Shown here: in pieces, positions 6,178-24,055 of the stretch
Layout: the number at the start of each line of letters is the position of its first letter
Numbering within the stretch: position 1 is the stretch's first letter
Program-made: the position numbers and the translations under genes
NCBI GenBank assembly: GCA_963760795.1
Contig: CAVXEP010000012.1
Coordinates: 128,001-192,000 of the forward strand
DNA length: 64,000 nt
Reading direction: 5' to 3'
Source: an uncultured delta proteobacterium
GTDB taxonomy: Bacteria; Desulfobacterota; Binatia; UBA9968
The notes under the pieces: generated by a model
Told to the model about the DNA's origin: nothing
Database searches by the model: none
The model's input: only the letters and a program-made list of their open reading frames with translations

Positions 6178-6440
6178 ATATCAATTGACTACGGATCGCT
6201 TTTCTCACCTCGCTCCGGGCCCGTCGAATCGCACGGCCACGATGAGCACAGGTTTCTGCACAGATGTAGCGCATGCTATTGGAGGAATCGTTCAAGTGCA
6301 AGTTGATTACACGAGAACAGCCGAAACGGTCGCGATGTAACAGCGTCCGGAAATTCACTGCGGAACTCAGAGGTGGAATTTCCCCGGGCTGTTCTGGACC
6401 TCTCTAGCGGTTTCAGGTATTGATTCCTGGCAAAGCACCG

Positions 6441-7493
6441 ATGGTTGTCATAAAAGTCGAAAAAGTCAGCAAGCGATACAACCACACCCCGGCTGTAAAG
6501 CGCTGCGACCTCCAAGTCCATTCAGGTGAGATTCTAGCACTGCTCGGACCGTCGGGATCGGGGAAAACCACCTTGCTCCGGCTGATTGCCGGATTCGAGC
6601 GACCCGATGAAGGGCGGATTCTTATCGGCGAGCGCACCGTCGTCGACGTCGCCGGTTCGATATGGCTCCCCGCCGAAGCGCGCGGCGTCGGGATGGTTTT
6701 TCAGGACTACGCCTTGTTTCCCCATTTGACGGTGACCGAGAATATTCAGTTTGGCCTGCGCGGCATTGCCAACCAAGAGCGCCAAGAGCGCCTTCAAGAG
6801 TTGTTGCGGGCAACCGAGTTGCTGCCGTATGCACAACGATATCCCCATGAATTATCGGGTGGTCAGCAACAGCGGGTTGCTTTGGCGCGCGCCCTAGCAC
6901 CGCGCCCGCCGGTTGTCTTGCTTGACGAAGCCTTCAATGGCCTCGACCCTGAACTCAGGCCGCAAATGCGCAAAGAGGTCGCTAGCATATTGCGCCAGAT
7001 GAAAACGGCCGCGGTGCTGGTCACCCACGACCAGGAAGAAGCTCTCGGAATGGCCGACCAAGTGGCGGTCGTTCGCCAGGGCGAACTGCAGCAAGTCGGC
7101 ACACCGGAAGAGGTCTATTATAATCCTTCGACTATATTTGTTGCCGGATTCGTCGGCCACGCCGACTTTATCGGTGGCGTCGTATCCGGAGCACAGGTTC
7201 AGACCGAATTTGGCAATTTCTCCTGTTCATCGGAGATTCGTCCCGGCCCGGTCAAAGTGATGATCCGCCACGAGGCCGTCAACACCAAAGCCGACGGCAT
7301 TCTCGCCACCGTCGAAGAGCGCGAGTTTCTTGGCGGCGAAATCCTCTACCGGCTGCGTCTCCCCTCGGGCGACGCGGTCCACTTGGAGCAACGCAAACCC
7401 GTCCATTGGCCGGTCGGACACCGAGTGCCAATCGACGTTCATATCCCCACCGCCGTGGTCTTTGCCGATGCCGGCAGTGAACCCATCGAGTAG
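6441..7493 (+). CDS. fbpC: Fe3+ ABC transporter ATPase (FbpC/FutC type)
   Basis: GPSGSGKTT, VFQDYALFPH, LSGGQQQR, TOBE-like tail; adjacent to binding protein and permease. Confidence 0.85.
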   Translation: MVVIKVEKVSKRYNHTPAVKRCDLQVHSGEILALLGPSGSGKTTLLRLIAGFERPDEGRILIGERTVVDVAGSIWLPAEARGVGMVFQDYALFPHLTVTENIQFGLRGIANQERQERLQELLRATELLPYAQRYPHELSGGQQQRVALARALAPRPPVVLLDEAFNGLDPELRPQMRKEVASILRQMKTAAVLVTHDQEEALGMADQVAVVRQGELQQVGTPEEVYYNPSTIFVAGFVGHADFIGGVVSGAQVQTEFGNFSCSSEIRPGPVKVMIRHEAVNTKADGILATVEEREFLGGEILYRLRLPSGDAVHLEQRKPVHWPVGHRVPIDVHIPTAVVFADAGSEPIE

Positions 7494-7688
7494 TTTCCAC
7501 CTTTTTCCAGAACACGAACGATCGAAAGCCCTTCCGTTTAGTCGGTGTTGGCCAGCACCCGTGGCAATTCCACGACGAGGCTCGCATCGCATCGGCGCAA
7601 AACCAGCCCCGATATTTTGCCGTTTGTTGGCAGTTTGAAACTCCAGAATACGCACTTCCCAGGGGTGCCTTATGGGCAAGGTTGCGGT

Positions 7689-7721
7689 TTGACAAACTAA
7701 TAACATTCGACTATACGAACA
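7689..7721 (+). promoter_or_regulatory. sigma70 promoter overlapped by palindromic operator
   Basis: TTGACA(7689)-N17-TATACG(7712); palindrome TTCG-ACTATA-CGAA at 7706-7719. Confidence 0.7.
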
Positions 7722-7813
7722 ATCAAAGTTTCTCAGGGAACAACTTTTAGAAGTTAAATTTGTCAAATATTGAAACAGCCAAGACGAAGTAAATTTTGTC
7801 GGGAGGACATGAG

Positions 7814-8867
7814 ATGAAGCATAGGTATTCGCAATGTTGCTTGTCGGTTTTTGCCTTGATTTTTGGACTCGGGTTAAGCGCGATTTTTAGTGTCACCGTG
7901 ACGGCGCAAGAAAAGGTCATGAACCTCTATACCGCCCGTCATTATTCCACCGATGAAGCTTTCTACACCGGCTTTAGCAAACTCACCGGCATCAAGCTTA
8001 ATCGCATCGAAGGCGGCGAAGACGCGCTTTTCGAACGGATCAAGGCCGAAGGCGCCGCTAGTCCGGCGGATGTCTTCTTGACCGTCGATGTCGCCCGGCT
8101 GTGGCGCGCGGAGCAGGCGGGCATCTTCGCGCCGCTCAAGTCGGAACTGCTGGCTAAGCGCATCCCCGCTCACTTTCGCGATCCCAATGGCAACTGGTTC
8201 GGCTTCTCATCGCGGGTTCGGGTTATCGCCTATGATCGGCGTAAGGTCAGTCCCGGCGATGTCGCGCGCTATGAGCAGTTGGCCGATTCCAAGTGGAAAA
8301 GCGAAATCTGCACCCGCCCGAGCAGCCACCCATATAACCTTTCTTTAACATCCAGCATGATCCTCCACTTGGGCGAGGATAAGGCGCGCGAGTGGGCGCG
8401 CGGCGTGGCAACCAACTTGGCTCGCCCGCCAAGAGGCGGCGACACCGACCAATTGACCGCAGTGGGCGTCGGTGAATGTTCGATCGCGCTGTCAAACCAT
8501 TATTACTATGTCCGGCTTATGCGTTCGACAAAGCCGGAAGATCGCGCGCTGGTGGAAAAAGTCCACATCGTTTGGCCCAATCAGAACGATCGCGGCGCTC
8601 ATGTCAACATTTCCGGCGGCGGCATACTGAAAAACGCCCCCAATCGCGACGCTGCGGCGAAGTTTCTCGAGTATCTCGCCAGCGACACGGCACAAGCTTA
8701 TTTTGCCGATGGCAACAACGAATGGCCCACCGTCAAGGGCGTGAAGCTGGCCAATCCCCAGCTCGAGACTTTCGGCCGGTTTAGGACCGACGCCGTTGCC
8801 ATTGGCAGATTTGGGCAAGACCCAGGCGGCGGCCCAGCGACTGGCCGACCAGGTCGGCTGGAAATGA
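7814..8867 (+). CDS. fbpA: Fe3+ ABC transporter substrate-binding protein (FutA/FbpA), frameshift near C-terminus
   Basis: Signal peptide, NLYTARHY, SPADVFLTVD, NHYYY, HVNISG; alternative frame ends DQVGWK*. Confidence 0.9.
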
Positions 8868-8906
8868 AGCCTTAACCTTAGCACCAACTGACTGACAACT
8901 GACACC

Positions 8907-10652
8907 ATGACAACGATTGCCGCTGCTTTGCGCTCGAAGGCCATCAGCGACATCACCGTGCCGCGGATCGGTGCTCTTGGCGTGGTGTCATTGATAACCG
9001 CCGCCCTGGTGGTGGCGCCGATTGCTGCGGTCGTCTGGAACATTTTTCTGCCCAGCGAGGCGACCTGGGAGCACCTGATATCGACTGTCCTGCCCGAGTA
9101 CATCGCCAACACTTTCCTGCTGCTAGTGCTGGTCGCCGCGGGAGTTGTTTGCTGCGGCGTGCTCTCCGCGTGGTTGGTTACCGCCTATGAATTCCCTGGC
9201 CGACGCGTCCTAGAATGGGCGCTGGTGTTGCCAATGGCGATCCCCGCATATGTCATGGCCTATGCTTACACCGATTGGCTCCAGACCTCGGGACCGGTGC
9301 AAAGCATACTGCGCGAATTCACCGGTTGGCGGGTGCGCGAGTACTGGTTTCCGGAAATCCGCTCATTGCCGGGCGCCGCGACCATGCTGTCGCTCGCGCT
9401 CTATCCCTATGTTTACCTGCTGGCGCGCGGCGCCTTCCTTGAACAGTCACGCAGCAGCTATGAGGCCGCCCAACTGGCCGGCTATGGCGCGTGGGGAAGA
9501 TTTTGGCATGTGTCATTGCCTCTGGCGCGCACCGGGATTGTCGCCGGCGTCGCCTTGGCGCTGATGGAGACACTCGCTGATTTCGGCACCGTCTCGTATT
9601 TTGCCGTGAATACTTTTACCGCTGGCATCTACCGCGCCTGGCTCTCCCTTGGCGATTCGGTCGCCGCGGGCCAGCTCGCTACCTGCCTGCTCGTGTTCGT
9701 GCTCGCAATGCTCGCCCTAGAGCGCATGCACCGCGGCGATGCGCGCTATACCAGCAACCGCACACCCATAACCCCGCAACGGCTTGGCGGCGCCAAGGCT
9801 ATGGGCGCATTCGCGCTATGCGCCATACCGATCGCATTCGGTTTCATGGTGCCGGCGGCGATTCTGCTTGAACTGGCCCTGACCGATCCGCAGGTGCAAT
9901 TTGGCGCGCGCATCACCGGACTGATTACCAACACGTTTATTTTAGCTGGCATCGCCGCGATTGCCGCCGTCGTCGTCGCCATGCTGCTGGCTTATGCGGC
10001 AAGGACAGTGAAGAGCCCGCTGGTACAAGCAGCGAATCGCCTGGCTGTGCTCGGCTATGCCCTGCCAGGCGCGGTGATCGCGGTAGGCATTCTTCTACCG
10101 CTGGGCAAGCTCGACAACGCTTTGATCGCCTGGATTTACCAACAGTTTGGCGTGCGCACCGGATTGATTTTAACCGGTTCGGTCACGGCGCTCATCTATG
10201 CCTATCTCGTCAGGTTTCTCGCCGTGGCGTTTCAAACGGCCGAAGCCGGGCTGACACGGGTGACTCCGTCGATGGACGATGCCGCGCGCAGCCTTGGCCT
10301 TTCACCCGGCCGCACCCTGGTGCGGGTGCACATGCCGATCATGCGCAGCAGCATCGCCACCGCAGCGCTGCTCGTATTCGTCGACGTTATGAAAGAATTA
10401 CCGGCGACCTTCGCCATGCGGCCGTTTAATTTCGACACCCTAGCGGTGGAGGCCTACAACTTGGCAAAGGACGAGCGCATCGCCGAAGCCGCCCTGCCGG
10501 CGCTGCTGATGGTCGCCATCGCGCTGTTGCCGCTGATTTTACTGTCGCGCCAGATCGCCAATTCGAGCCAGCGCAACGCATGTGGCTCGCAGTCAGGACT
10601 CTGCTGTCTAGCCGAACCAGGGATCCGAGATGACCACGAGCACTTTACTTGA
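8907..10652 (+). CDS. fbpB: Fe3+ ABC transporter permease (FbpB/FutB)
   Basis: Two EAA-type loops, LALMETLADFG, DVMKELPAT, RPFNFDTLA. Confidence 0.92.
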   Translation: MTTIAAALRSKAISDITVPRIGALGVVSLITAALVVAPIAAVVWNIFLPSEATWEHLISTVLPEYIANTFLLLVLVAAGVVCCGVLSAWLVTAYEFPGRRVLEWALVLPMAIPAYVMAYAYTDWLQTSGPVQSILREFTGWRVREYWFPEIRSLPGAATMLSLALYPYVYLLARGAFLEQSRSSYEAAQLAGYGAWGRFWHVSLPLARTGIVAGVALALMETLADFGTVSYFAVNTFTAGIYRAWLSLGDSVAAGQLATCLLVFVLAMLALERMHRGDARYTSNRTPITPQRLGGAKAMGAFALCAIPIAFGFMVPAAILLELALTDPQVQFGARITGLITNTFILAGIAAIAAVVVAMLLAYAARTVKSPLVQAANRLAVLGYALPGAVIAVGILLPLGKLDNALIAWIYQQFGVRTGLILTGSVTALIYAYLVRFLAVAFQTAEAGLTRVTPSMDDAARSLGLSPGRTLVRVHMPIMRSSIATAALLVFVDVMKELPATFAMRPFNFDTLAVEAYNLAKDERIAEAALPALLMVAIALLPLILLSRQIANSSQRNACGSQSGLCCLAEPGIRDDHEHFT

Positions 10653-10697
10653 GCCGGCGCAAACGGCAGGCCGAACCACGATTGGCGGATAGTAACT

Positions 10698-10730
10698 TTT
10701 TCAGGTCGCTTCCCCTTCCATATACGAACA
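10698..10730 (+). promoter_or_regulatory. Third copy of the TATACGAACA promoter/operator
   Basis: TTTTCA-N17-TATACGAACA directly before the FTR1 gene. Confidence 0.5.
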
Positions 10731-10732
10731 CT

Positions 10733-12711
10733 ATGGGTTCCTCCCCGGCTACGATTCCGCCACAATCGAAAGTTCAGATCGGCTCCTGTTCGCCATTGGA
10801 CTTGTTTTCCTAACCGTCACCGGCGCATTCGCTGCCGGCGATGAAGCCAAGCGTATTTTAGCGCTAATCGATTACATCGGCGGCGACTATCGCAACGCCG
10901 TGCAAGGCGGGAAAGTCGTCAGTGACGCCGAGTACACGGAGATGAGCGAGTTCTCGGCGCGCAGCTTGGAGCTGTTCAGCCAATTGAAATCCGCCGAAGG
11001 CGATAAAGCGGGCATCGAAAAAGATCTGCGAGCGCTGGCAAGCCACATACAGCAGAAAACCGGCGAGGATGCAGTGCCGCAGTTGGCCCAGCAGATCAAG
11101 GACCGCTTGATCAAAACCTATAACATCGTCACCTACCCCAAGGCTCTGCCGAACTACGAGGGCGCGAAACTGATCTACATGCAGAATTGCGCTCAGTGCC
11201 ATGGCGAGAGCGGCAGAGGCGACGGCCCCGGCCGCGAGTCGATGAATCCAAAAACACCGCCGCCGGCCAATTTTACCGACGCAGACTTCATGGCCGGACT
11301 CTCGCCTTTTAAAGTCTATAACACGACCACGTTCGGCATCGACAAAACGGCGATGGCTTCCTTCGCCGCGCTGCCGGACGAGCAACGCTGGCAAGTCGCC
11401 TTCTATGTTATGGCGCTACGTTTTCCCGCTGAAACAGCAGCTGCCGGAGAGTCCTGGCTGAAAGGCAAGTCGCTGCCGGCCACCCTCGCAGGCGTCGCCA
11501 CCTTGGCAACTTCTTCAGACAACGAGCTATCCGATAAAATCAAGACGAGTTTTCCCAACGCGCCGCACAACGACATTCTCGCCTACCTCAGGCGCGGGCT
11601 TCTAGAGAAAAAATCGAGCGATCCATTGTTGATCGCTCGCACCCTGCTCGGCGAAGCCGCTGAGATATACAGCAAAGGCGATAAGGAAAAAGCTTACCAG
11701 AAAGCCATCGAGGCCTACCTTGACGGCTTCGAGATGGCCGAGCCGGCGCTGTTCGCCAAGGATGCGGCCTTGGGAAGATCTCTCGAGGCCCAGTTCACGC
11801 AGTTTCGCAATTCGATCCGGCAGGGAGTTTCCGCCGAGGAGATTCAAAAACAACACGCCGAGATCGAAGCCAAGCTCGACCAGGCGGCACAGATGTTGGC
11901 CAGCAGCGATGATTTCTCCGGTTATTACGCATTCTTGAATTCGGCCCTGATCATTTTACGCGAAGGACTAGAGGCGGCGCTGATTCTCGCCGCGATCATC
12001 GCCATGCTGCGAGTGATGGGCGCGACAAAATCGATTCGTTACATCCATTTCGGCTGGATGCTGGCGGTGGCCGCCGGTTTCCTCACCTGGCTCGCCGCGC
12101 AGACCGTGCTGACTTTCAGCGGCCAGCACCGTGAAAGCATGGAAGGATTCATCTCGATCTTCGCCGCGGCGGCGCTGTTCTATGTCGGCTATTGGCTGCA
12201 CACCCGGACCGAGGCTAAACGGTGGCAGGCGTTTATTCAAGACAAAGTCCAAAACGTACTTTCGCGCAAAAGTATCTTCGGACTGGTCGGCATCTCTTTT
12301 TTCGCTGTGTATCGCGAGGCCTTCGAGGTCGTGCTCTTCTATCAGGCGCTCTGGTTACAGAATGAAAATAGCCACCAAGCCATCCTTGGCGGATTCGCCG
12401 CAGGCGTAGCCGCGCTGCTCGCGGCTACCTTTGCGATCTTCAAGCTCGGCCTGCGCATACCGCTAAAATACTTCTTCGGCGTCACCGGCACACTGCTCTA
12501 CATCATGGCCTTCATCTTCGCCGGCACCGGCATCAATCAATTGCAGGCGGCCGGCTGGGTTCCGGCAACACCGCTCGATTTTCCGCCGGCGGTGCCGCTG
12601 TTGGGCATCTATCCGACCATGGAAACCCTGGCAGCCCAGGGACTATTGGTCTGCATATTTATAGCTACCTCGCTATGGATGGCGCATGAACGAAAAAAGG
12701 CAGTGGCTTAA
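10733..12711 (+). CDS. Cytochrome c/FTR1-family iron permease (EfeU/PbrT-like); 5' end approximate
   Basis: In-frame ALIDYIGGDY upstream of ORF 10900, CAQCH heme motif, REGLE and REAFE motifs. Confidence 0.9.
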
Positions 12712-12900
12712 ATGCGTGTTCCAAGGCAAGGCGAACAGGAAACGGCGGAGACGGTGACTCAGGACGGCGATGCGCTTCGTTGCCATTGCGGCAGCTTGGT
12801 CGCCCGGCTGGTGCCGAATGGAGTGGAAATCAAATGCCGCCGCTGCAAACGGCGCGTTGTAATTCCGCTCGGTTTGGGCGCTTTTGAAATCTCAGAATAG
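12712..12900 (+). CDS. Com-like Cys4 metal-ribbon microprotein (62 aa)
   Basis: RCHCGSLVARL...VEIKCRRCKR matches the Com-family pattern; ATG abuts the FTR1 stop codon. Confidence 0.75.
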   Translation: MRVPRQGEQETAETVTQDGDALRCHCGSLVARLVPNGVEIKCRRCKRRVVIPLGLGAFEISE

Positions 12901-12954
12901 AGCCAATAATCGAGAAGCCATGGCACTTGATTGAAAGCTAATTAAGTTTTAATG

Positions 12955-13037
12955 TTCAGTTACTTAAAGAGTAATATTTAGTATCGACTAATAATTTTAC
13001 TTAGAGTTGACAAATATTATTGATTTCGATATACGAA
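12955..13037 (+). promoter_or_regulatory. Four DtxR-like boxes at 23-bp spacing over a sigma70 promoter
   Basis: 14-mers at 12955, 12978 (TTAG-TATCGA-CTAA), 13001 and 13024; TTGACA(13007)-N17-TATACG(13030). Confidence 0.6.
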
Positions 13038-13044
13038 CATAATT

Positions 13045-13122
13045 AGCGGCCAGCGATCTAGAATCCAGAGCCCGGATTTTGCCGAAAAAATATCGGCAAA
13101 ATTACGGGCATTTTTATTGTTT
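13045..13122 (+). terminator. Leader element copy A: 29-nt repeat motif, hairpin and T-tract (attenuator-like)
   Basis: AGCGGCC AGCGATCT AGAATCC AGAGCCC overlaps stem GCCCG..TTTTGCCGA/TCGGCAAAA..CGGGC, followed by ATTTTTATTGTTT. Confidence 0.65.
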
Positions 13123-13138
13123 ACGGAGGTCAATCTAA

Positions 13139-13351
13139 ATGTACGGCATCAAATCACCCCAGGGCAGATGGTCGGTCTCGCTTTGCAACTGTAGTCAGGA
13201 CACCGCCCACTTTCACTACGGCAGCGTCGTCCTGCACATCGCCCGTGACGACCTGCGCGAGCTTGGTCTCGCCATGCAAAGCGTCGCCGAAGGTAGCGAC
13301 CTAACTGATACGGAAAATCACATCGAGTTAAAGAAAGGTCTGGTCCAATAG
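13139..13351 (+). CDS. Small CxC/HxH protein, first gene of the tonB operon
   Basis: GGAGG RBS at 13125; LCNCSQDTAHFHYG; stop 2 nt before exbB. Confidence 0.7.
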   Translation: MYGIKSPQGRWSVSLCNCSQDTAHFHYGSVVLHIARDDLRELGLAMQSVAEGSDLTDTENHIELKKGLVQ

Positions 13352-13353
13352 TC

Positions 13354-13963
13354 ATGTCGGCATTTATTGCAATCATCATCAAAGGCGGCATCGTCATGAT
13401 CCCGCTGCTCGCTTGCTCCTTGATCTCACTCGCGCTCACCATCGAACGGTTTGTGTTTTGGGCCAAACTGAAAACCAAAGATGTCCTGGATCAAATCTTG
13501 TCATTGGTCGAAAAGGGCGAATTCGAACAAGCTCTTAAAACTGGGCAAGACCTCCAGCCAGCCAATCGCGCGGGTTTTAGCGGCGGGTATCGCGCACCGC
13601 AATCCCGCGCCGGCGAAGGCAATGGAAGCTCTGGCGCAGGCCGAGATTCCCGTGCTCAAAAGCCGCCTCGGAATTCTCGACACCATCGTGACGCTTGCCC
13701 CTCTGCTCGGATTGCTCGGCACCGTCGTCGGCATGATCGGCTCCTTCGATGTCATGTCGGAAGCGGGCATGGGGCAACCCCACGCCATTACCGGCGGAGT
13801 CGCGGAAGCGCTCATCGCCACTGCCACCGGCTTGTTGATCGCGATCTTGACCCTGGTCTCCTACAACTACTTCACCGCCAAGGTCGAGCGCGAAATGGAC
13901 CGCATGGAGCACTTCAGCTCCTCGCTGGAATTGTTGCTGCATGAACATGCGGGGAAGCATTAA
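13354..13963 (+). CDS. exbB: ExbB/MotA/TolQ proton channel, one frameshift
   Basis: GGIVMIPLLACS...IERF then APLLGLLGTVVGMI and EALIATATGL. Confidence 0.9.
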
Positions 13964-14376
13964 TGCGCATTCAACGCCGCAGTATCAAGAAAGCGCGCAT
14001 CGAGATCATCCCGATGATCGACACGATCTTTTTTCTACTGGTATTTTTCATGATCTCGACCTTGTCGATGACCCAGTTCAAAGGCATGCCGGTCAATCTG
14101 CCCAAGGCGGCGTCCGGCCAGCAGGCGCCCGCCGAGAGCGCGGCGATCACGATTGATAAAGACGGCCGGTTGTTTCTCAACCAGCAAGCGATCGACAAAG
14201 CGGCTCTCGGTGAAGCTTTGAGCCAGCAACTTGCGAAGAATGCCGAGATGTTGGTCGTCATCAACGCCGACGACGGCGTTCAGCACGGCCAAGTGGTCGA
14301 AGTCATGGACATCGCCCGCGGCGCCAACGTGGCAAAGATGGCCATCGCGGTCAAACCGAAGGAGCAGAAAAAATGA
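13963..14376 (+). CDS. exbD: ExbD/TolR biopolymer transport protein
   Basis: IEIIPMIDTIFFLLVFFMI, VNLPKA, VINAD. Confidence 0.93.
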   Translation: MRIQRRSIKKARIEIIPMIDTIFFLLVFFMISTLSMTQFKGMPVNLPKAASGQQAPAESAAITIDKDGRLFLNQQAIDKAALGEALSQQLAKNAEMLVVINADDGVQHGQVVEVMDIARGANVAKMAIAVKPKEQKK

Positions 14377-15203
14377 ACGAGCGCTGGTTGGTATCTTCAT
14401 TCACTGCGTCGTCGTTGATTCATTTGGGAATAATTCCGTTGGCTGCGTTGGTGATGCACGCCAAACCGATTAAACCCGCCATGGTTCCCATTGAGCTGGT
14501 GGATGTGGCGCGCGTCGAGGAACCGAAGAAAGTCGAAGTCCCACCGCCTCCGCCTCCTCCAGCGCCCAAACCCAGGCTGCAAAATATCACCGCGCCGAAG
14601 CTTATATCCAAACCGGATTTCGAAACCAGCCCGCTGCCGCCAACCGGCAACACCAAGGAAGAGATCAAAGAGAAACCGGTCGAACAGCCGCTCGCCTCGC
14701 TGCCGGATAACTCCGGCGCCGCCAAGGCTGGATGGAATGTCGGCGCGCGCGCCGCGGAAGCCGAAGGCAGCGCCGCCGGCGCCGGCAATCTTTTCGGCAA
14801 GGGCGACGTGGGCGTGGTCGGCGGTAGCGGCGTGGCCGGCGGTGGCGGCGGCACAGGCGCGTCGGGATTGGGTCGAGGCGCCAAGGGCGACGGCACCGGC
14901 GGCGGCGCGGGCTCCGGCGAAGCATTATCGGGTCTCGCTCGCCCGCTCGGCGGTTACCAAGTCAAGCCGCGCTATCCCGAGTCCGCCAGAAGAGCGGGTG
15001 TTCAGGGAGTAACAACGTTGCGCGTGCGTGTTTTGGAGAATGGCCGGGTCGGCGAAGTGGTGGTCGAACAGTCAGCCGGCTTCCGGGATCTCGATTTCGC
15101 CGCGATGGACGCGGTCAAAAAATGGCTCTTCGAGCCGGCTCGCCGGGGCAAAGACGCGGTGTCGGTCTGGGTGATGTTACCGGTGAAGTTCGAACTGCAC
15201 TAG
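14373..15203 (+). CDS. tonB: Energy transducer TonB
   Basis: N-terminal TM with SxxxH, Pro- and Gly-rich linker, PRYPESARRAGVQG, WLFEPA. Confidence 0.92.
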   Translation: MNERWLVSSFTASSLIHLGIIPLAALVMHAKPIKPAMVPIELVDVARVEEPKKVEVPPPPPPPAPKPRLQNITAPKLISKPDFETSPLPPTGNTKEEIKEKPVEQPLASLPDNSGAAKAGWNVGARAAEAEGSAAGAGNLFGKGDVGVVGGSGVAGGGGGTGASGLGRGAKGDGTGGGAGSGEALSGLARPLGGYQVKPRYPESARRAGVQGVTTLRVRVLENGRVGEVVVEQSAGFRDLDFAAMDAVKKWLFEPARRGKDAVSVWVMLPVKFELH

Positions 15204-15211
15204 GAAAGACC

Positions 15212-15403
15212 ATGGGCAAAACGCTTGTGAATTTCGCTATCAAACAAACGGTCACACCGAGTCTGCCGGCCCCTTCCGGCCCAAAGCCGCGCATCGAAAG
15301 CAATCACTTGTTTCAAGGCAACAGCGAGATCGTCATCGTGCACCAAAAGGAGGAATACAACCTGCGCATCACCAGAAACGGCAAGCTAATTTTGACGAAA
15401 TAA
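15212..15403 (+). CDS. hemP: Hemin uptake regulator HemP/HmuP
   Basis: IESNHLFQGNSEIVIVHQKEEYNLRITRNGKLILTK, with the KLILTK family signature. Confidence 0.9.
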   Translation: MGKTLVNFAIKQTVTPSLPAPSGPKPRIESNHLFQGNSEIVIVHQKEEYNLRITRNGKLILTK

Positions 15404-15414
15404 TGTTTATGACG

Positions 15415-15488
15415 AAGCCAGCCATCCTCTCCTCCGGACGTGGAAAGCCAGCCAATCAAGCAACCCAAACACTATGGAGGATGAGATG
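15415..15488 (+). promoter_or_regulatory. Putative HemP-responsive leader: direct repeats plus anti-SD
   Basis: AAGCCAGCCA at 15415 and 15445; CATCCTCTCCTCC (15423-15435) is largely complementary to GGAGGATGAGATG (15476-15488). Confidence 0.65.
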
Positions 15489-17662
15489 AGTCGGCAACAA
15501 AAGCGTGCGATCGAAAGAAAGAAGGGCAAGACGGCGTTCCAAAAACTCTGTCTTGCCGCGGGCGAAGGAGTTGGCAAGGCGATGGCTTTCAGCTTTGCGT
15601 TGGCAAGCCACGCAGGCGCGGCGGAGCCGAAAAAAGAGGAACCGATCACCCTGCCGCCTGTGGTGGTGCAGGATCAAGGCAGCCCCTACACTGCCGGAAT
15701 CGTCCCTGTCGAGAATACCTGTACCACTGCAGGATATGCCACAGTCGATTACCGTGATACCGCAACGATTAATGCAGGAACGCGGAGCTGCTAGCTTCCA
15801 CGATGCGTTGCGCAGTGTACCCGGTATTAGTTTCCAAGCAGGCGAAGGGCGGCGCTCAGGGCAACAATTTGACGTTGCGAGGCTATAACGCGAGGAACGA
15901 CCTTTTCATTGACGGGGTTCGCGATCAGGGCTCGTATTTTCGCGATATATTCAATCTCGAATCGATTGAGGTTCTAAAAGGACCGTCCTCACCTATACTT
16001 CGGCCGTGGCTCGACCGGTGGCGCGATCAATCAGGTCAGCAAAGTTCCACAGCTTACGCCGAGCTACGGCGGCATGTTTGCTCTGGCGGCAACGGGGTTT
16101 ATTTGCGGGGCACGAGCGATGTCAACCACCCAATAACCCGGTCGCCCACGCGGCTTTCCGCGTCAACTTGATGGCCCACAAGGACGATATTGTCGAGTCG
16201 CGACATTTCAGAGCAGCAACGATTGGGATTTGCGCCGTCGATCTCGTTCGGTCTCGGCACCCCAACCCAGTTAACCTTGAGCTATCTTATTCAAGGCGAA
16301 GACAATATTCCGGATTATGGTTTGCCCTACGTGGAATGGCAACCCGTTCCGCACCGACCGGAACAGCTTCTATGGCTTTGACCAGTGAAGATTACGAAGA
16401 AGACAATGCTGAATCTCGGCACGTCGCGGCTGGATCATCGCTTCAACGATATTTTCAGCTTGCGGAATACCCTACGCTACAGTCATAACGACCGGGAGCA
16501 CGAAACCACAGCGCCACGCGTCAATGTCATCCCCACCCTGTTCACCAGGAATAGACCGGCGCGCGATATTACTGAGGCGCTTCTCAGCAACCAAACGGAT
16601 CTAACCGCCAAGTTCGACACGTGGGGCTTTAAGCATGCATTAGTCTCAGGGCTCGAGTTTTCCCGGGACTGGTTGGATCGAACCAATTGATGCTTTCGTG
16701 GGAGCGCCGCCGGCAAACGCTATCAATCCAAACCCATACGCCAGTACCGCGGGCATGTCACACTCGGCTATCGCAGCGCGCAGACGGCGCCGCCTTCGGA
16801 TTCGGCATCTTCGCCGCAGATCAAATCAAACTGAACGAGTATTTTGAACTCGTCGGCGGCGTCCGTTGGGATTATTTCGACAACGACTTCGAAGGATCAC
16901 GCATAATACCCTGACGCGATAAGCTCGTTCGGACGGGTCGACGGATAAAATGTGGAGTTATCGGGGCGGACTGATCTTTCACCCGACCCCGTCACAGAGC
17001 TACTATTTCTCCTATGCGACCTCGTTCAATCCCTCCGCCGAAGCCATCCCTCAGCCAGCCACCAACGGTACTCCTCCGGAAAAGAATAGAATCTTCGAAA
17101 TCGGCGGAAAAGTGGAATTCTTCAATGGAACCTTAAACCTGCAAGGCGCTGTATTTAGAATCGACAAAACCAATGCCCGTGTAACTGATCCATTAGACCC
17201 AACCGGGACGCTCGTGCTTGACGGTGAGCAACGTGTTCAGGGTGTGGAATTCGGCATCGCTGGCCGCATTCTCCCCAACTTGAATGTGTTCGCTGGATAC
17301 ACTTTTCTCGATTCGAAGTTTCGCAAATCCCCGACCCCAGCCGTCGAGGGCAATCCGATATTAAACGTGCCGAAGCACAGCGCGAACTGTGGGTAACCTA
17401 CGACTTTTTCGAAAAGTGGCAGATCGGCGGGGGGCCGACGTATGTCAGCAGCTCGATCTACAACAATGCCGCGAACGTCACCCGTGTCCCGGTTCATGTT
17501 CTCTGGGACGCGACGGTGGCGTATCAGCTAACCAAGAATTTCCAATTCCGGCTCAATGGTATCAATCTTACCAATGACCATTACTATTCGGCTCTCAGCG
17601 GAGGAAACGTGTTGCCTGGAAATGGGCGCACGTTCATCCTCAGCACGAGCTTCAAGTTCTAA
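15486..17662 (+). CDS. TonB-dependent siderophore receptor (Fiu/PiuA-like), many frameshifts
   Basis: TonB-box-like [44 protein letters not shown]-terminal SFKF*. Confidence 0.85.
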
Positions 17663-17676
17663 GGAGTCCGACAAAA

Positions 17677-18357
17677 ATGATCGTCCAAGTGCCCAATGTC
17701 CTGAACTCCGAACAGCTCGCGCGCTGCCGTGAAGTGATGCAGCGCGCGGGCTGGATCGATGGCCGCGTGACGGCAGGGTATCAATCCGCCGTGGTCAAGG
17801 ACAACCGCCAGCTACCGGAGAATAGCCCGGAGGCGCGGGAGCTCGGCGATATGATCGTGGCAGCCCTGGAGCGCAACCCGCTGTTTATCACGGCGACGTT
17901 GCCGCTCCGGGTCTTCCCGCCTCTATTCAACCGCTACGAAGGCGGCGAATCATTCGGCGCGCATCTGGACAATTCCATCCGGCAGATTCCCGGCACACCG
18001 CTGCGCGTGCGCACGGATATTTCCGCGACGCTGTTTCTCAGCGCGCCGGAAGACTACGACGGCGGCGAGCTGGTCGTCGACGACGTTTACGGCGCCCACG
18101 CGGTGAAGCTTGGCGCCGGCGACATGGTGGTTTATCCGGCGAGCAGCCTGCACCACGTCAAGCCGGTGACGCGGGGAGTTCGTCTCGCGTCGTTTTTCTG
18201 GGTGCAGAGCATGGTGCGCGACGACGGCACTCGAACTCTGCTTTTCGATCTCGATATGGCGATCAACAAAGTCAATCAAGCTCTGCCAAATCACGGCGCC
18301 GTGGTGGAGCTGACCAATTGTTATCACAACTTGCTGCGGCGCTTCGCGGAGGTGTGA
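17677..18357 (+). CDS. piuC: PKHD-type Fe(II)/2OG hydroxylase (PiuC/YbiX)
   Basis: [43 protein letters not shown]. Confidence 0.95.
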
Positions 18358-18358
18358 C

Positions 18359-18891
18359 ATGAATAGGCGATCAAGAATGATCTCGGCCATCGCCCTCGTG
18401 CTGGTTGCCGGCTGCGCCGCGGCCGCGCCGGTGGATGAATCCGCCGCGCGCGGATCTCCGTCGCCTTCATCGAACCGGAGAAATTCACCGACGCGCGCCG
18501 CGCCGAGCTGGAGCCGACATCGACGGGCATCGTCGGCGAACTGCAAAAATTTATCATCACGACCGGCGCGCGCTACATCCCTGAGAATATGACACTGAAT
18601 ATCCGGATCACTGACATCGACCTCGCCGGCGACTTCGAATTGTTTCGCGGTCCGCAAGCGGACCAAGTGCGCATTGTCAAAGGTCTCTACCCGCCCCACA
18701 TCGTGCTTGAGTTCGAGATCATCGATAGCGCCGCGACGGTGGTCAAATCCGGCAAACGCGACTTGACCGATATCAATTACCAACTCCGCAGCGTTTACCC
18801 GAGAGAAGACTATCTACGCTACGAAAAGGATATCTTGCGCGACTGGCTGCGCGCCGAGCTTGGTGTTCTGAAGGCCGGCAAGACCAACTAG
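18359..18891 (+). CDS. DUF3016-like lipoprotein, frameshifted
   Basis: VAGC lipobox, FIEPEKFTD in the middle frame, ITDIDLAGDFE, LRYEKDILRDW. Confidence 0.7.
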
Positions 18892-18907
18892 CGCCCGAGG
18901 AGACGGC

Positions 18908-20730
18908 ATGAAGCTGCTGCATAAAATCATTTTTTGGTCCCACCTGCTCGCCGGCGTTATCGGCGGCACCGTCATCTTCATCATGTCGGCGACCGGCGTC
19001 ATCCTGATGTACGAGCGCCAACTGGTCGAATACGCCGAACGACGACGTGCGCGAGGTCGTGCCGCCGGATGCCAATGCGCAGCGCATAAGCCTGGATGAA
19101 CTGGTAGCCAAGGCGCGCGCGCAGAATCCCAAAGCCCAGCCCACAGGCGTGGTCCTGCGCAACGAACCGACCGCATCCGTCGCCGTCGGCTTCGGTCGTG
19201 AAGGCGCAACCTACGTGAATCCATATACCGGGGCGATCCTCGGCTCGGAATCGAAACTGCATGACTGGTTTCACGACGTCGTCGATTGGCACCGCTGGCT
19301 CGGCACGGAGGGCGAAGGCCGTGTCACCGCGCGCGCCATCACCGGTGCTTGCAACCTAGCGTTTTTCTGGCTGGCGCTTACCGGAGTCTATCTCTGGTGG
19401 CCGCGCAGTTGGCACTGGCGGGGATTGAAGCCGAGCCTCCTTTTCAATTTCCACCTCCGCGGCAAAGCGCGCGACTGGAACTGGCACAACGTCATCGGTT
19501 TTTGGTCGTCCGTCGGTGCTCGTCGTTCTCACGCTCACCGCGGCGGTGATGTCTTATCCGTGGGCCAACGATCTGCTCTACACATTGACCGGCAGCGAGC
19601 CGCCGCCAAGAGCGCAAGCCCCCGGCCCTGCGGCTCAAGCGCAGCAGCGGCGCGGCGCGGGCACAGAGACGCGCGAGCGCAAGCCGATGGCAAGCTTCGA
19701 TGCCTTCCTGGCGCGCGCCGATCAGCAAGCTCCCGGTTGGATCATGATGACGATGCGCCTGCCGCCGCGCGGCGATGGACCGGTCACGGTCTTGATTCAA
19801 GAGCCGACAGCGCCGCATATTTTCGCGCGCTCGCAACTGGCGCTCAATCGCTCCAGTGCCGAAGTCATAAAATGGGAGCCCTACGCCGCCGCCAGTCCGG
19901 GACGAAAGCTGCGAGTCTGGGTGCGCGGTCTTCACACTGGCGAGGCTCTCGGTTTCGCCGGCCAGACCGTCGCCGGCCTGGCGTCTCTCGGCGGCTGTTT
20001 CCTGGTTTGGACCGGCCTCGCAATGGCTTGGCGGCGTTTCCGCTACCGTAAACGCGATGCCGAAGACGCAACCACTGTGGAATATGTAACCGCGCCGGTG
20101 CAAGCCAGTCCCGAAGTCGTGCACACCGCGCCGCAGACCAATGAAGCATCAAAGGAGGCAACGAGAATCGACATGGAAGAAACGACCTCTAGCGCAACCA
20201 ACGGCCATGCTCACAACGGCCACGAGGACGCCCGCGCCCAATGGACCGGCGCGCCCGACAACGGCGATTCAGTACTCGTTCTGTACGGCACCGTCACCGG
20301 CAACGCCGAGTTGCTGGCGAATAAGCTGTCGGCGGCGCTACGCCGCGCCGGCGTAGCAGCTCGGGCACGAGACATGGCGCACTGCCAACCCAGCGTGTTG
20401 ACGCAGGCAAATTGCGTACTGGTGGTGATCAGCACCTACGGCGACGGCGAGCCGCCTGACGATGCCGCGTCGTTCTGGAAGGCTGTGGTGCAAGGCAATA
20501 GCCTCGATCTGCGCGGCGTCAAGTTTTCCGTGCTCGCCCTCGGCAACACCACCTACGATCATTTCTGCAAGTGTGGCCGCGACTTCGACGCCGCCCTGGA
20601 GCGCCACGGCGGCATACGAATCCATCCGCGCGTCGATTGCGACGTCGATTACGACACGCCGGCCAAGCATTGGCTCGACGGCGTGCTGGCGCAACTCCTC
20701 GACGACGAACGCAGCGCTCACTCGGCATAA
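18908..20730 (+). CDS. PepSY-associated TM protein (PiuB-like) with C-terminal flavodoxin domain, two frameshifts
   Basis: FWSHLLAG, YVNPYTG, WHRWL, WHNVIG, LHTGE; then YGTVTGNAE, STYGDGEPPD, ALGNTTYDHFC. Confidence 0.85.
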
Positions 20731-20747
20731 ACCAAAGGAGAACCCTC

Positions 20748-21428
20748 ATGACCAAGTTGATTTCCCTTTTCACGATGCTTGCGACGCTGTCGTTAATTCC
20801 TTCCGCTCACGCTCATTTCCTTTGGCTCGAACGTGACGGTGACGGCCCGGCGCGCGCCTACTTCGGCGAATGGATCGACGATATCCGCGAAAAAACCGGC
20901 GGGCTGCTCGACCGATTCAAAGCGCCGCGCGTATTTGTCGGCGCGAACAACGAACCGCTCCAGGTTAAACGCAATGAAAATAACCTCGAATTCGCAGCCA
21001 AAGGAGCTGGCGACGTGCGCTTCGTGGACAGCAGCGTGCCAGCGCGCGACGACAACGAAAAAGGCGGAACTACCAAGACAATCTATTACGCCAAGCATGG
21101 GCGTTCGGAAACCGCGGCGAAGCTCGACTTGGAGTTAGTGCCCACAGAAGCCAACGGTAAAACCTTTGTGCTAATTTTGCTCGGTTCACCGCTTCCTAAA
21201 GCCGAAGTCACGATCATCGGCCCGTCCAAGTGGGAAAAGCCGTTAACCACCGATGAACAGGGCCGTGTCACTCTGCCGATGCCCTGGACGGGTCGCTACG
21301 TTTTGGAAGTGACCCACTTCGATGACAAGGCCAGCGGCAGCGGTAGCGAAAAATTCAACCGGACGCGCCATATATCGTCGCTTTCGTTTGTGCAGCAGGA
21401 CGGCATACCCTGGATCGATAAGCGCTAA
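20748..21428 (+). CDS. DUF4198-like periplasmic protein
   Basis: AGGAG RBS, signal peptide ending AHA-HFLWLE, TDEQGRV. Confidence 0.75.
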   Translation: MTKLISLFTMLATLSLIPSAHAHFLWLERDGDGPARAYFGEWIDDIREKTGGLLDRFKAPRVFVGANNEPLQVKRNENNLEFAAKGAGDVRFVDSSVPARDDNEKGGTTKTIYYAKHGRSETAAKLDLELVPTEANGKTFVLILLGSPLPKAEVTIIGPSKWEKPLTTDEQGRVTLPMPWTGRYVLEVTHFDDKASGSGSEKFNRTRHISSLSFVQQDGIPWIDKR

Positions 21429-21588
21429 TCTTTCGCTTGGTGAAACAGTTATGGATAGTTTGATTCAAAAGGCACTAGCTGTTTCTCGGCTCACGGCGCA
21501 ATTTCCGGTTGATACTATTTTCTCCGCTACGGTCTGGTTCGAAGAGATGATGGTAATCTCGCTTGACAATATCGACGTGCAACTAAGT

Positions 21589-21613
21589 CCGTTTAATTGA
21601 TACGATTAAACGG
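21589..21613. promoter_or_regulatory. Inverted repeat (operator-like) upstream of the SIP gene
   Basis: CCGTTTAAT-TGATACG-ATTAAACGG, downstream of TTGACA at 21563. Confidence 0.55.
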
Positions 21614-21639
21614 TTTCCACTCTATCGGAAGGAGCTTGG

Positions 21640-22467
21640 ATGAACCAACCAGAACCCCAAAAAGTCCGTCGAGTTCGCCAGAGGCCGCGCATAGTCGAAG
21701 TCGTGCACGTTGAACGCCTTACACCGCATATGACCCGCGTGGTTTTTGCCGGAGAGGAATTGGAAGGCTTTGCGACCCGAGGCCCGGCGGAGCACTTGAA
21801 AGTAAACTTCCCAGCTCCAGGTGAACCGACGGTGGTGCTCCCGGAATGGGGACCCGAAGGGCCGATCCTTCACGAGGGGCAGCAACGACCTTTGAACCGC
21901 ACCTACACACCGCGACGATGGGACGAGAAAGCGAGGGAATTAACCGTTGATTTCCTACTCCATGGCGAAGGCCCGGGCACCACTTGGGCACAGCAAGCCA
22001 AACCGGGGCAGGTGGTGGCTGTGTCTCATCAGCCAGGAGGCGCGTACAAAGTAGATGCCACAGCGGACTGGTACTTTATCGGCGGCGACGCGGCGGCGCT
22101 GCCTGCGGTGGCGACGCTCCTCGAAGCGCTGCCTCCGACGTGTTTCGCCTATGCGTTCGTTGAGGTGGCGGACGATGCCGAAGAACTGCAGCTGAATTCG
22201 CCGGCACAGTTACAACTAACGTGGCTGCACCACAGCGGGGCGACCCAACCGGTCGGGCGGAGTCTGGAGCAGGCGGTGCGAGAATTTCCATTCCCGGATG
22301 GCAACGGCCGGGTCTGGATCGGCTGCGAAGCCGGCATCATGCGGAACATCCGCCGCCATCTGTTGAACGAGCGTGACATGGACCGGTCTAATATCCACAC
22401 CCAAGGTTACTGGAAGTACGGCGCGGTGAATCACCCCGACAACGACCGAGGAAAGGACTTGGACTAG
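21640..22467 (+). CDS. Siderophore-interacting ferric reductase (ViuB/YqjH family)
   Basis: LTPHMTRV, RTYTPR, VDFLLHG-GPG, DAAALPA, GYWKYG. Confidence 0.93.
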   Translation: MNQPEPQKVRRVRQRPRIVEVVHVERLTPHMTRVVFAGEELEGFATRGPAEHLKVNFPAPGEPTVVLPEWGPEGPILHEGQQRPLNRTYTPRRWDEKARELTVDFLLHGEGPGTTWAQQAKPGQVVAVSHQPGGAYKVDATADWYFIGGDAAALPAVATLLEALPPTCFAYAFVEVADDAEELQLNSPAQLQLTWLHHSGATQPVGRSLEQAVREFPFPDGNGRVWIGCEAGIMRNIRRHLLNERDMDRSNIHTQGYWKYGAVNHPDNDRGKDLD

Positions 22468-22612
22468 AGAGTTATTGTCAAGCTAGAGGTTTAGTTGACG
22501 GACTATCGGGACTCGCGCTCTGTACAGCGACCGCCGTCGTCCATTGGCATATCGCCCGGCCTGGGCGAGAACGACCTACAGGAAAAGTAAAGATCAGCTA
22601 AATTTCCCGGAC

Positions 22613-23091
22613 CTAGCTCTTCTTGTATATCTGTTGCGCGAGGTAATTTTGGTATCCGACTTCTTCAATCTCATGCAGCTGGGTTTCGATCCAGTCGACA
22701 TGCGCTTTCTTCATCAACGAGAATATGCTCCAAAAGCTCCCGGCTGGCGTTGTCACTCGCGTCGAAGCAGCTCTTGATGCCGCCTTTTAAAACTGCCAGT
22801 GCGCCCTCTTCCAATCCAAGATCATTTGCCAATTGCTGTTTCACCGATCGCTCCGACGCTGATTTTGTCATAAGCGGTGAGATTGGGAATCCCTTCGAGG
22901 AAAAGAATCCGTTCGATAATTTGATCGGCGTGCTTCATCTCTTCAATGGATTCTTTCCACGCCACCCCTGCCAGCACCTCGTAGCCCCAGTTTTTGCACA
23001 TCTTGGAGTGAATAAAATACTGATTGACGCCGGTAAGCTCTTTGCGCAGCACTTCGTTAAGAACCTTGATGACTTCAGGACTTCCTTTCAT
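22613..23091 (-). CDS. bfr: Bacterioferritin, two frameshifts
   Basis: MKGSPEVI..ELTGVNQYFIH..ESIEEMKHAD..ERILFLEGIPN; tail HVDWIETQL..GYQNYLAQQI. Confidence 0.9.
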
Positions 23092-23372
23092 ACCTTACCT
23101 CCGTACGGTTTATCTAAGCATGTACTTCGGCAAAGAACAAAGCGGATTATAGACTTTTGCTGAATTTTTCCAGCCGCCGATTCTCATCGGACGTCCTCTC
23201 TGTCATTCTCAATAGGACCATAGTCCACTTTGATCAATTGCCCGTGAACACTTTCGCCATCAGAAAACTAAAGACACCGGTGTTTCCCATAGTTGAAGTT
23301 TTTTGCAGCCCACATTTTCAACAATGACAATTTATCTTTGGTCCAGCCTCGATAAACCAAGCCAATCGGACG

Positions 23373-23388
23373 CGGCACGCTAAGTGCT
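23373..23388 (+). promoter_or_regulatory. sigma54 promoter for the ferritin-like gene
   Basis: CGGCACGCTAAGTGCT (GG-N10-GC); predicted +1 near 23399. Confidence 0.55.
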
Positions 23389-23403
23389 TCTTCAGCTAAA
23401 CAA

Positions 23404-23536
23404 AGAGGCCAGCGGTCACGAACCCAGAGCCCAGCGTTTTGCCTTAGCGGCAAAACCCGGGCTCTCGGATTTGCTTACGATGAGATGCCAGCGCAAAAGA
23501 ATAATGATATGGTGTTTGTCCATCCGTAAACAAATC
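23404..23536 (+). promoter_or_regulatory. Leader element copy B plus a second long stem ending just before the RBS
   Basis: 24/29 identity to 13045-13073; stem AGAGCCC..TTTTGCC/GGCAAAA..GGGCTCT; then GATTTGCTTACGATG/CATCCGTAAACAAATC. Confidence 0.65.
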
Positions 23537-23554
23537 AATCAGGAGGAGAATATT

Positions 23555-24055
23555 ATGGGCACTAAAGGAAGAGAAATTGTCGGCATGGACGTAGAACAAC
23601 TGTTGAAGACACTCAACATGGCTTTCGCCGACGAGTGGTTGGCTTATTATCAATACTGGCTCGGCGCCAAAGTCGTGAAGGGGCCGATGAAAGAAGCGGT
23701 GATCGCCGAACTTTTGCAACATGCGGCGGACGAGCTTCGTCATGCCGGCCTGATCGCGGGCAGGATTATTCAGCTCGGCGGCACGCCGGTGGCCGAGCCG
23801 AAAAAATGGTACGACGTGACCAGTTGCGGTTACGACGCGCCCGATGACCCGTTCGTCGAGACTATCCTGAACCAAAACATCAAGGGCGAGCGCTGCGCCA
23901 TCGACTTTTACAAGAAGCTGTTAGAGGCGACGCAGGGCAAAGATCCGGTCACTTACAATATCGTATTGCAGATTCTCCAGGACGAAGTGGCGCACGAGGA
24001 AGACCTCCAATCGCTCGCTGAGGACCTGGACTTCATGTTGAAGAAATCACAATAG
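23555..24055 (+). CDS. Ferritin-like (DPS-like) protein
   Basis: AGGAGG RBS; ADEWLAYYQYW, DELRHA, GERCAI, DEVAHE. Confidence 0.9.
   Translation: MGTKGREIVGMDVEQLLKTLNMAFADEWLAYYQYWLGAKVVKGPMKEAVIAELLQHAADELRHAGLIAGRIIQLGGTPVAEPKKWYDVTSCGYDAPDDPFVETILNQNIKGERCAIDFYKKLLEATQGKDPVTYNIVLQILQDEVAHEEDLQSLAEDLDFMLKKSQ

Follow-up and report, generated by a model that had tools for sequence, protein, structure and literature searches.

A candidate Com-type protein–RNA switch at an iron acquisition locus of an uncultured Binatia bacterium

Repressors of the Fur type and small RNAs are the usual explanation of iron control in bacteria, and Com, the RNA-binding translational activator of phage Mu, has so far been studied as a phage curiosity with a single target. 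Whether these two subjects meet in a bacterial chromosome is the question raised by a stretch of 64,000 nucleotides (nt) from an uncultured delta proteobacterium of the Binatia (assembly GCA_963760795.1, contig CAVXEP010000012.1, positions 128,001 to 192,000 of the forward strand; hereafter the window), in which a small open reading frame (ORF) for a four-cysteine protein directly follows an FTR1 iron permease gene, and a 29-nt motif stands once behind this ORF and once ahead of a ferritin-like gene. A preliminary description of this DNA had supposed that a non-phage Com homologue controls an uptake operon and a storage gene through a leader RNA element. The comparative evidence assembled here backs that core idea, and we propose that cells may have adopted a Com-type protein–RNA switch for acquiring iron, one that has a new RNA motif and uses a terminator as its platform.

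The features that carry the argument are given below in window coordinates. P1 denotes the hairpin inside the motif, P2 the hairpin that follows it, and R1 a covariance model of the element, whose matches are called strong at E 4e-8 or better.

10900–12711, plus strand: FTR1 iron permease fused to cytochrome c, 603 amino acids (aa) (Pfam FTR1, 9e-26; Cytochrom_C, 8.3e-11)
12712–12900, plus strand: Com-like Cys4 zinc-ribbon microprotein, 62 aa, with C24, C26, C42 and C45 (hhalign, PHROG 13819)
13045–13073, plus strand: RNA element, copy 1 (R1 68.8 bits, E 3.6e-15)
13050–13055, 13055–13057/13063–13065 and 13065–13070, plus strand: parts of copy 1, respectively the repeat CCAGCG, P1 and the repeat CCAGAG
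13070–13118, plus strand: P2 hairpin of copy 1 (13070–13109) and T-run (13111–13118), the 5' arm starting inside the second repeat
23404–23432, plus strand: RNA element, copy 2, with P1 at 23414–23416/23422–23424 (R1 66.6 bits, E 1.3e-14)
23426–23465, plus strand: P2 hairpin of copy 2, then a weak, interrupted T-run

The two copies lie where the preliminary description had placed them and are, as it said, identical at 24 of 29 positions (mismatches at positions 3, 12, 15, 16 and 20); the downstream hairpins at 13070–13109 and 23426–23465 likewise have the same inner TTTTGCC/GGCAAAA stem and different loops. Its division of the motif into four units of about 7 nt has to be given up, as the anatomy is that of two CCAG(A/C)G repeats around a 3-bp hairpin. 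An exact pattern across the motif end and the stem start gave two matches in the genome of 6,581,560 bases and none when reversed, and a looser regular expression gave 15 matches genome-wide, with the consensus only in copies 1 and 2. One further candidate copy, on the minus strand of contig C34 near 62949, was rejected: its P1 is unpaired, no homologue of an iron gene of the reference set lies nearby, and by eye it seems to fall in coding sequence. An alternative 5' hairpin, pairing GGCC with GGUC in some folds, was also discarded, being broken by copy 1 and similar variants.

The genus comparison covered 31 genomes, and the protein alignment 16 homologues from genus loci; one of the genomes (G004) is unpublished and supplies single rows of the protein and RNA alignments and of the genus tallies, with no claim resting on it alone. 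Beyond the genus, a scan with the ORF alignment over one genome per prokaryote species yielded 180 confirmed loci; the analysis covered the best 80 of these, with record titles including Candidatus Binatia, Myxococcus, Corallococcus, Hyalangium, Sorangium, Syntrophobacteraceae and Thermodesulfobacteriota, among others. When 17 genus sequences are aligned, the 5' part of about 29 nt is nearly invariant, and the hairpin behind it drifts in sequence and keeps its pairing. In a set of 64 distinct variants, which come from several phyla, the core consists of CCNG(A/C)G, a 3-bp P1 with a loop of 5–8 nt, and a second repeat that enters the second hairpin; two CCNG(A/C)G repeats are present in 63 of the 64, and the exact form CC-N2-3-GAG in 39. 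P1 is paired in 97.9% of the 192 cells and altered on both sides in 31, a count made on variants that are related to each other and that include two spurious-looking rows (L168:2516; L160:4970, minus strand); no shuffle out of 500 scored as high, and slid controls were paired at 59% or less. The same 64-variant count holds 14 G-U cells, against a single A-C pair seen in a separate tally, which argues for an RNA made from this strand rather than for a DNA palindrome. The motif is a real, low-copy, structured and strand-specific RNA element.

What follows this conserved core differs between lineages. Within the genus, the pairing of P2 is kept while its sequence varies (5 of 14 pairs changed on both sides in the 17 sequences) and a T-run comes after it, and P2 is there a predicted intrinsic terminator just ahead of the Shine-Dalgarno (SD) sequence of the next gene. 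Copy 1 looks like such a terminator because of the T-run at 13111–13118, and it is classed as one by the rule that we applied, under which the hairpin begins within the final 9 nt of the motif and 5 T or more occur among the next 9 nt; 43 of 80 distinct element instances are so classed, and three of the four ferritin-type copies fall just under the rule, with 4 T in 9. A promoter and terminator scan tool did not call the copy-1 terminator, which we attribute to its 9-nt loop, the tool permitting 3–8 nt. The hairpin in the window looks like a transcription terminator rather than a translation block. The other 37 instances come mostly from GC-rich Myxococcota and their relatives; 16 of them have an ATG or GTG no more than 9 nt past the predicted hairpin, and in several minimum-energy folds the second repeat, by eye, pairs with the GGAG region. 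In the Myxococcota and others P2 is thus predicted to reach the start codon instead. Cis-regulatory RNAs typically combine a single conserved sensor part with a terminator in some cases and a ribosome-site hairpin in others, as seen here, and a free small RNA is hard to reconcile with two P2 platforms for one motif.

The distribution of the element ties it to the Com-like ORF. At all 16 genus loci the motif is downstream of the ORF, with a gap of 31–33 nt (eight loci), 69 nt (G010) or 117–164 nt (seven loci). The ORF was found in 20 of the 31 genus genomes, 19 of which have strong R1 matches, at least 29 altogether and 1–4 per genome, these copy numbers being lower bounds; 28 of the 29 are on the ORF-bearing contig. 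The twentieth ORF-positive genome (G045) has a diverged copy 65 nt past the ORF with a compensated P1, so that the element accompanies the ORF in 20 of 20 cases. Among the 11 ORF-negative genomes, R1 gave weak matches in three. One of these, G007, is 99% complete and lacks the Com-like ORF, and its copy, located behind FTR1-DUF4198 (L063:1501–1570), is decayed, with both repeats mutated, which fits relaxed selection following loss of the protein; the matches in G001 and G009 were not accepted as copies, the former seeming, by eye, to lie inside a coding sequence.

Similarly, among the best 80 of the 180 loci, the regular expression places the motif within 1600 nt downstream of the ORF and on the same strand in 62, and in 60 of these it lies 35–188 nt from the end of the ORF's tblastn match, from which distances outside the genus were counted. 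Outside this downstream zone, 1.16 Mb of sequence contained 8 matches, six of them genuine further copies and two spurious-looking. Four further loci were recognised by R1 only, one carries a diverged element, one has upstream copies and one is at a contig edge. Four Myxococcota genomes of 9–13.6 Mb contain the motif exactly once each, at the Com locus, with none in the reversed control; it was absent from the Sorangium genome searched. A generic dispersed repeat of the repetitive extragenic palindrome kind, which would have left the motif unlinked to iron genes, was rejected, copies being few (1–4 per genome) and all at the iron locus.

Some loci show variations on this arrangement. Some genomes, among them G013 (L074:12738–15185) and G043 (L088), have two Com-like ORFs, and G013 has four copies of the element, one of them directly ahead of its second Com-like ORF, which suggests autoregulation. 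A second ferritin-like paralogue of G003 is preceded by a weaker element (26.5 bits; L078:5005–5072) with repeat changes and a shortened hairpin. At a Haliangium locus (L128:4155–4261), two tandem motif copies, 78 nt apart, stand ahead of a pyridoxal phosphate (PLP)-dependent decarboxylase that we suspect to belong to siderophore synthesis.

The 62-aa ORF at 12712–12900 encodes the pattern CxC-x15-CxxC, and its ATG abuts the stop codon of the FTR1–cytochrome c gene, the first gene of the unit that ends in the ORF; the coupling to FTR1 noticed at the outset thus stands, and the same adjacency recurs in related loci. The four cysteines and a basic core are invariant in the alignment of the 16 genus homologues. 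A profile of these 16 aligned by hhalign to Mu Com over 34 columns with a probability of 95.6% (E 1.2e-8), all 16 matched PHROG 13819, 'gpCom control of modification' (best E 2.5e-5; window protein E 0.0024), and 11 of the 16 matched a 'translational regulator' PHROG. Several close homologues in a large protein collection had already been named 'phage FluMu protein Com' by the Joint Genome Institute pipeline. AlphaFold models residues 21–52 as a three-stranded core, with predicted local distance difference test values of 78–88, and the tails as low-confidence or disordered. The ORF had no match below E 0.79 in a sequence search of the PDB, and its model none below E 1.5 by Foldseek against the same database, where the top rows were assorted zinc domains. 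We read the ORF as a distant, probably non-phage and chromosomal, member of the Com zinc-ribbon family, as first supposed, with a homology that is weak but reproducible.

The genes behind the two copies, and the candidate promoters before them, are as follows.

13007–13035, plus strand: candidate sigma70 promoter, TTGACA (13007–13012), AT-rich spacer of 17 nt, TATACG (13030–13035), from sequence and conservation
13139–13351, plus strand: orf70, 70 aa, first gene behind copy 1, with SD GGAGG at 13125–13129
13354–18357, plus strand: operon behind copy 1, comprising exbB (split), exbD, tonB, a hemP-like gene, a TonB-dependent receptor gene (fragmented) and a PKHD/PiuC-type hydroxylase gene
23373–23389, plus strand: sigma54-like -24/-12 site, GGCACG (23374–23379) and TGCT (23385–23388), conserved in 5 of 5 ferritin-like leaders
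23555–24055, plus strand: ferritin-like protein, 166 aa, behind copy 2 (Pfam Ferritin, 9.7e-25)

The element stands ahead of a TonB system with its receptor and ahead of a ferritin-like gene, the latter also in G003, G013 and G019. In Myxococcus xanthus the ORF and the motif precede a heme operon with a TonB-dependent receptor, HmuY and HemS/ChuX. The copy-1 operon has Pfam matches to MotA_ExbB (2.2e-32) and PKHD_C/2OG-FeII_Oxy_3 and keeps its gene order in relatives; the names exbD, tonB and hemP come from reading the translations. Its first gene, orf70, gave no match in Pfam, NCBIfam or PHROG; its homologues are the first gene past the element, ahead of exbB, in several relatives, and its Atlas cluster has 216 members, mostly from Binatota. 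An ATP-binding cassette (ABC) transporter and a solute-binding protein are encoded upstream of FTR1, and this flanking gene content marks 6420–24055 as an iron locus. The preliminary statement that no phage genes are visible was checked for this interval and is borne out, the neighbours being iron transport and storage genes.

Of 30 genus copies, 29 are followed by a gene in the same orientation, at measured gaps of 7–167 nt, and in four genus cases the start chosen by the ORF caller overlaps the element. Besides the orf70-exbB-exbD-tonB-hemP-receptor-piuC set, the genes behind the element in the genus encode ferritin-like proteins, DUF4198, the second Com-like ORF and cupredoxin, as well as DUF6662, FMN_bind and ApbE behind FTR1 (Pfam on representatives). 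At ten other loci, the first downstream gene had only weak, sub-threshold matches to porins or outer-membrane barrels in five cases; the others were one TonB-dependent receptor, one DUF6662, the PLP decarboxylase of Haliangium and two with no match or a chance-level one. Within the window operon, an ORF resembling hemP/hmuP at about 15200–15403, named from its C-terminal motif, stands directly ahead of the TonB-dependent receptor gene, and the operon may thus carry a second small regulator besides the Com-like protein.

Copy 1 directly follows the candidate sigma70 promoter, whose TTGACA and similar -10-like hexamer are kept in seven relatives with a longer spacer between ORF and motif; the seven loci with a gap of 117–164 nt carry an inserted promoter-like TTGACA-17-TAtACg. 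The scan tool did not call this candidate either, by our reading because of a fixed rule that the -10 must end in T, TATACG ending in G. In the remaining relatives the element is intra-operonic, 31–33 nt past the ORF stop, and no promoter-like sequence was seen by eye. Ahead of copy 2, the site at 23373–23389 resembles the sigma54 -24/-12 type and would predict a start a few bases before the element. Four RNA runs were inspected as contigs at an M. xanthus locus, and three of them gave very long contigs (13–69 kb) that are uninformative on transcripts; in the fourth (X2) a contig starts at L169:3951 and extends over the ORF and the motif into the start of the receptor gene, which hints weakly at co-transcription.

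Two other sequences were noticed near these promoters. An inverted repeat, CTAAT .. ATTAG, at 12975–13006, immediately before the copy-1 TTGACA, is conserved at the corresponding position in loci L004–L009, and the spacer is AT-rich; the repeat could be an operator for an iron-responsive repressor. The block TTTTCAACAATGACAATT at 23316–23333 precedes the sigma54-like promoter by some 40–60 nt; it hardly varies among the ferritin-like leaders (5 of 5) and may be the site of an enhancer-binding or bending protein.

How could such a locus work? We think it reasonably probable, from sequence and from the analogy with phage Mu, that the Com-like protein binds the element and prevents the inhibitory hairpin. 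The protein would be made together with the FTR1 permease and would bind the two repeats and P1, the cognate site being the motif of about 30 nt. The second repeat would thereby be withheld from P2, resulting in terminator read-through or, in other phyla, in an opened ribosome site. The result would be higher expression of exbB-exbD-tonB with the receptor and of the ferritin-like gene; in relatives, the outer-membrane, flavin and cupredoxin genes that lie behind FTR1 would be raised as well. As the ORF and FTR1 are coupled, the FTR1 operon's expression state would be relayed, via the switch, to the TonB system and to the receptor and ferritin-like genes. Placement, covariation, co-occurrence and homology were computed; we infer the binding, the activating direction, which is taken from Com, and the link to iron through co-expression with FTR1. 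Rather unlikely, in our judgement, is the extension in which the Cys4 site is the sensor and Zn or Fe loading sets RNA binding, as in a post-transcriptional regulon of the iron regulatory protein/iron-responsive element (IRP/IRE) type; if true, a regulon of this kind would be common to Binatia, Myxococcota and other phyla and wired to terminators or ribosome-site hairpins.

The comparison with the Mu com-mom system is the closest at hand. [quoted passage not shown] This agrees with what the preliminary description said of Com's target, GA-N(2-3)-CC-like repeats and an inhibitory hairpin that Com opens. The two systems share a Cys4 zinc-finger protein of about 60 aa with a disordered tail and CC..GAG-type motifs flanking a short hairpin that adjoins an inhibitory one (PMC6483171), and in both the protein gene is directly upstream of the RNA target. 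On the contrary, the system described here is chromosomal, with iron transport and storage neighbours at 6420–24055 and no phage genes among them; its targets are iron or heme uptake and ferritin-like genes, not a DNA modification gene; up to 4 sites occur per genome, some of them 10 kb from the Com-like gene; the inhibitory hairpin is, in this genus, a predicted transcription terminator; and the protein has CxC as first knuckle and misses the PF10122 threshold.

Other precedents exist for parts of this arrangement. At BglG/SacY-type ribonucleic antiterminator (RAT) sites and with HutP, the protein site overlaps the 5' arm of a leader terminator and binding leads to read-through. The putative protein site here overlaps the 5' arm of a leader terminator in the same way; unlike these systems, the protein is a zinc ribbon, a sensory domain is not evident, and the motif is found on SD-sequestering hairpins as well. 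HemP/HmuP/ChuP proteins are small positive and probably post-transcriptional regulators of TonB-dependent receptor genes, and the first gene of an iron-regulated operon for heme uptake encodes them (PMC9131926). The arrangement in Myxococcus, where the Com-like ORF and the motif come before the receptor, HmuY and HemS, is comparable, although the protein belongs to another family and the window has its separate hemP-like ORF at about 15200–15403. To our knowledge, no defined RNA motif of this kind has been reported for HemP. Fur-regulated small RNAs can have small protein partners, as exemplified by RyhB, PrrF and, with FbpA/B/C, FsrA of Bacillus subtilis. Like them, the element is linked to iron, combines a conserved single-stranded part with a terminator and has a small basic protein encoded nearby; unlike them, it has a co-directional gene directly behind it (29 of 30 genus copies) and often lacks a terminator.

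Several observations weigh against this interpretation. Homology to Com is marginal by curated models, Pfam PF10122 (Zn_ribbon_Com) being matched weakly by 3 of 16 genus members, below significance (best E 0.015), and not at all by the window protein, and NCBIfam gave no match for the ORF. The Mu Com alignment contains one gap, the first knuckle being CxC here versus CxxC in Mu Com. The repeats mostly have one spacer base (CC-A-GAG) versus the published two or three, and CC-N2-3-GAG is not rare by chance in a GC-rich motif of 30 nt, related variants counting as one observation. Neither the regular expression nor R1 found an element at 11 of the 80 Com-like loci, and the genus scan scored 150 first-look candidates per genome, whence the lower bounds on copy number. 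Copy 2 is marginal under the terminator rule, with a poor T-run. Distance to the next gene hardly discriminates, an ORF of at least 70 aa starting within 300 nt of 76 of 79 elements and of 1688 of 2000 random positions; when an SD was required, the figures were 44 of 79 and 295 of 2000. Finally, an uptake operon would be switched the same way as a ferritin-like gene, for which the model offers no reason.

Among the rival explanations, the element might be an iron-regulated small RNA, some 75 nt long and either transcribed from a promoter of its own or derived from a 3' untranslated region, that pairs in trans like RyhB or PrrF, the Com-like protein being unrelated or a chaperone. Copy 1 and six relatives do have promoter-like sequence directly before the motif and a terminator directly after it, and a variable terminator behind a conserved 5' stretch is what the seed and terminator of a small RNA usually look like. 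We nevertheless find this unlikely, as a gene in the same direction directly behind 29 of 30 genus copies is not what a stand-alone unit would show, many instances outside the genus run without terminator into the start codon of the next gene, and in the other relatives no promoter-like sequence was seen by eye before a motif lying 31–33 nt past the ORF stop. If the element were instead a cis-regulatory RNA with another input, be it a metal ion, a small ligand or a different protein, and the ORF a mere neighbour in an iron locus, one motif carried on terminators or SD-sequestering hairpins would be accounted for, as in riboswitches, and the weakness of the Com homology would fit. This too is improbable, given that every Com-positive genus genome has the element, that the complete, Com-less G007 holds a decayed copy, and that 60 of 80 loci, drawn from several phyla, have the motif 35–188 nt from the ORF match end; a 3-bp hairpin and two short repeats would also make a small ligand pocket, and they are similar to the Com site in the literature.

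A signal for RNA processing or stability at operon-internal terminators, such as an RNase site or a 3'-end protector with no role as a switch, would suit about half of the genus, where the element lies between operon genes, after the Com-like ORF and before a strong terminator. It leaves unexplained the copies right after predicted sigma70 and sigma54 promoters, the terminator-less versions and the strict linkage to the Com-like ORF, and we regard it as very improbable. The chance is slighter still that a transcription factor, possibly the zinc-ribbon protein itself, uses the motif as an operator in DNA. It is true that the motif is promoter-proximal in two contexts and contains a short inverted repeat, but this repeat tolerates G-U (14 cells) as against one A-C pair in P1, its orientation always agrees with that of the downstream gene, it is fused to an RNA hairpin that drifts in sequence and keeps its pairing, and many copies are intra-operonic, 31–33 nt past a stop codon.

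Returning to binding by the Com-like protein, the preliminary description knew of no account of such a system, and none was found: Rfam 15 gave no gathering-score match in the window or in 9 related loci, with four chance-level matches only around copy 1 at E up to 10, and a full-text literature search, excluding subscription journals and supplements, returned no chromosomal Com homologue tied to iron genes and no such motif. If true, the switch would give Com a cellular branch with a defined, covarying site and a coherent target set in iron and heme acquisition across several phyla, would extend the control of iron in bacteria by an RNA switch that depends on a protein, and would provide dozens of natural variants of a Com-type RNA site. 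M. xanthus suits direct testing, as its element is single-copy and ahead of the heme receptor operon.

A last observation concerns the window sequence itself. The exbB, TonB-dependent receptor, PepSY/flavodoxin and bacterioferritin genes are split over at least two frames (13354–13963, 15474–17662, 18908–20730 and 22671–23091, respectively). They are fragmented likewise in G019 and intact in G003 and G013, and assembly indels seem a likelier cause than pseudogenes.

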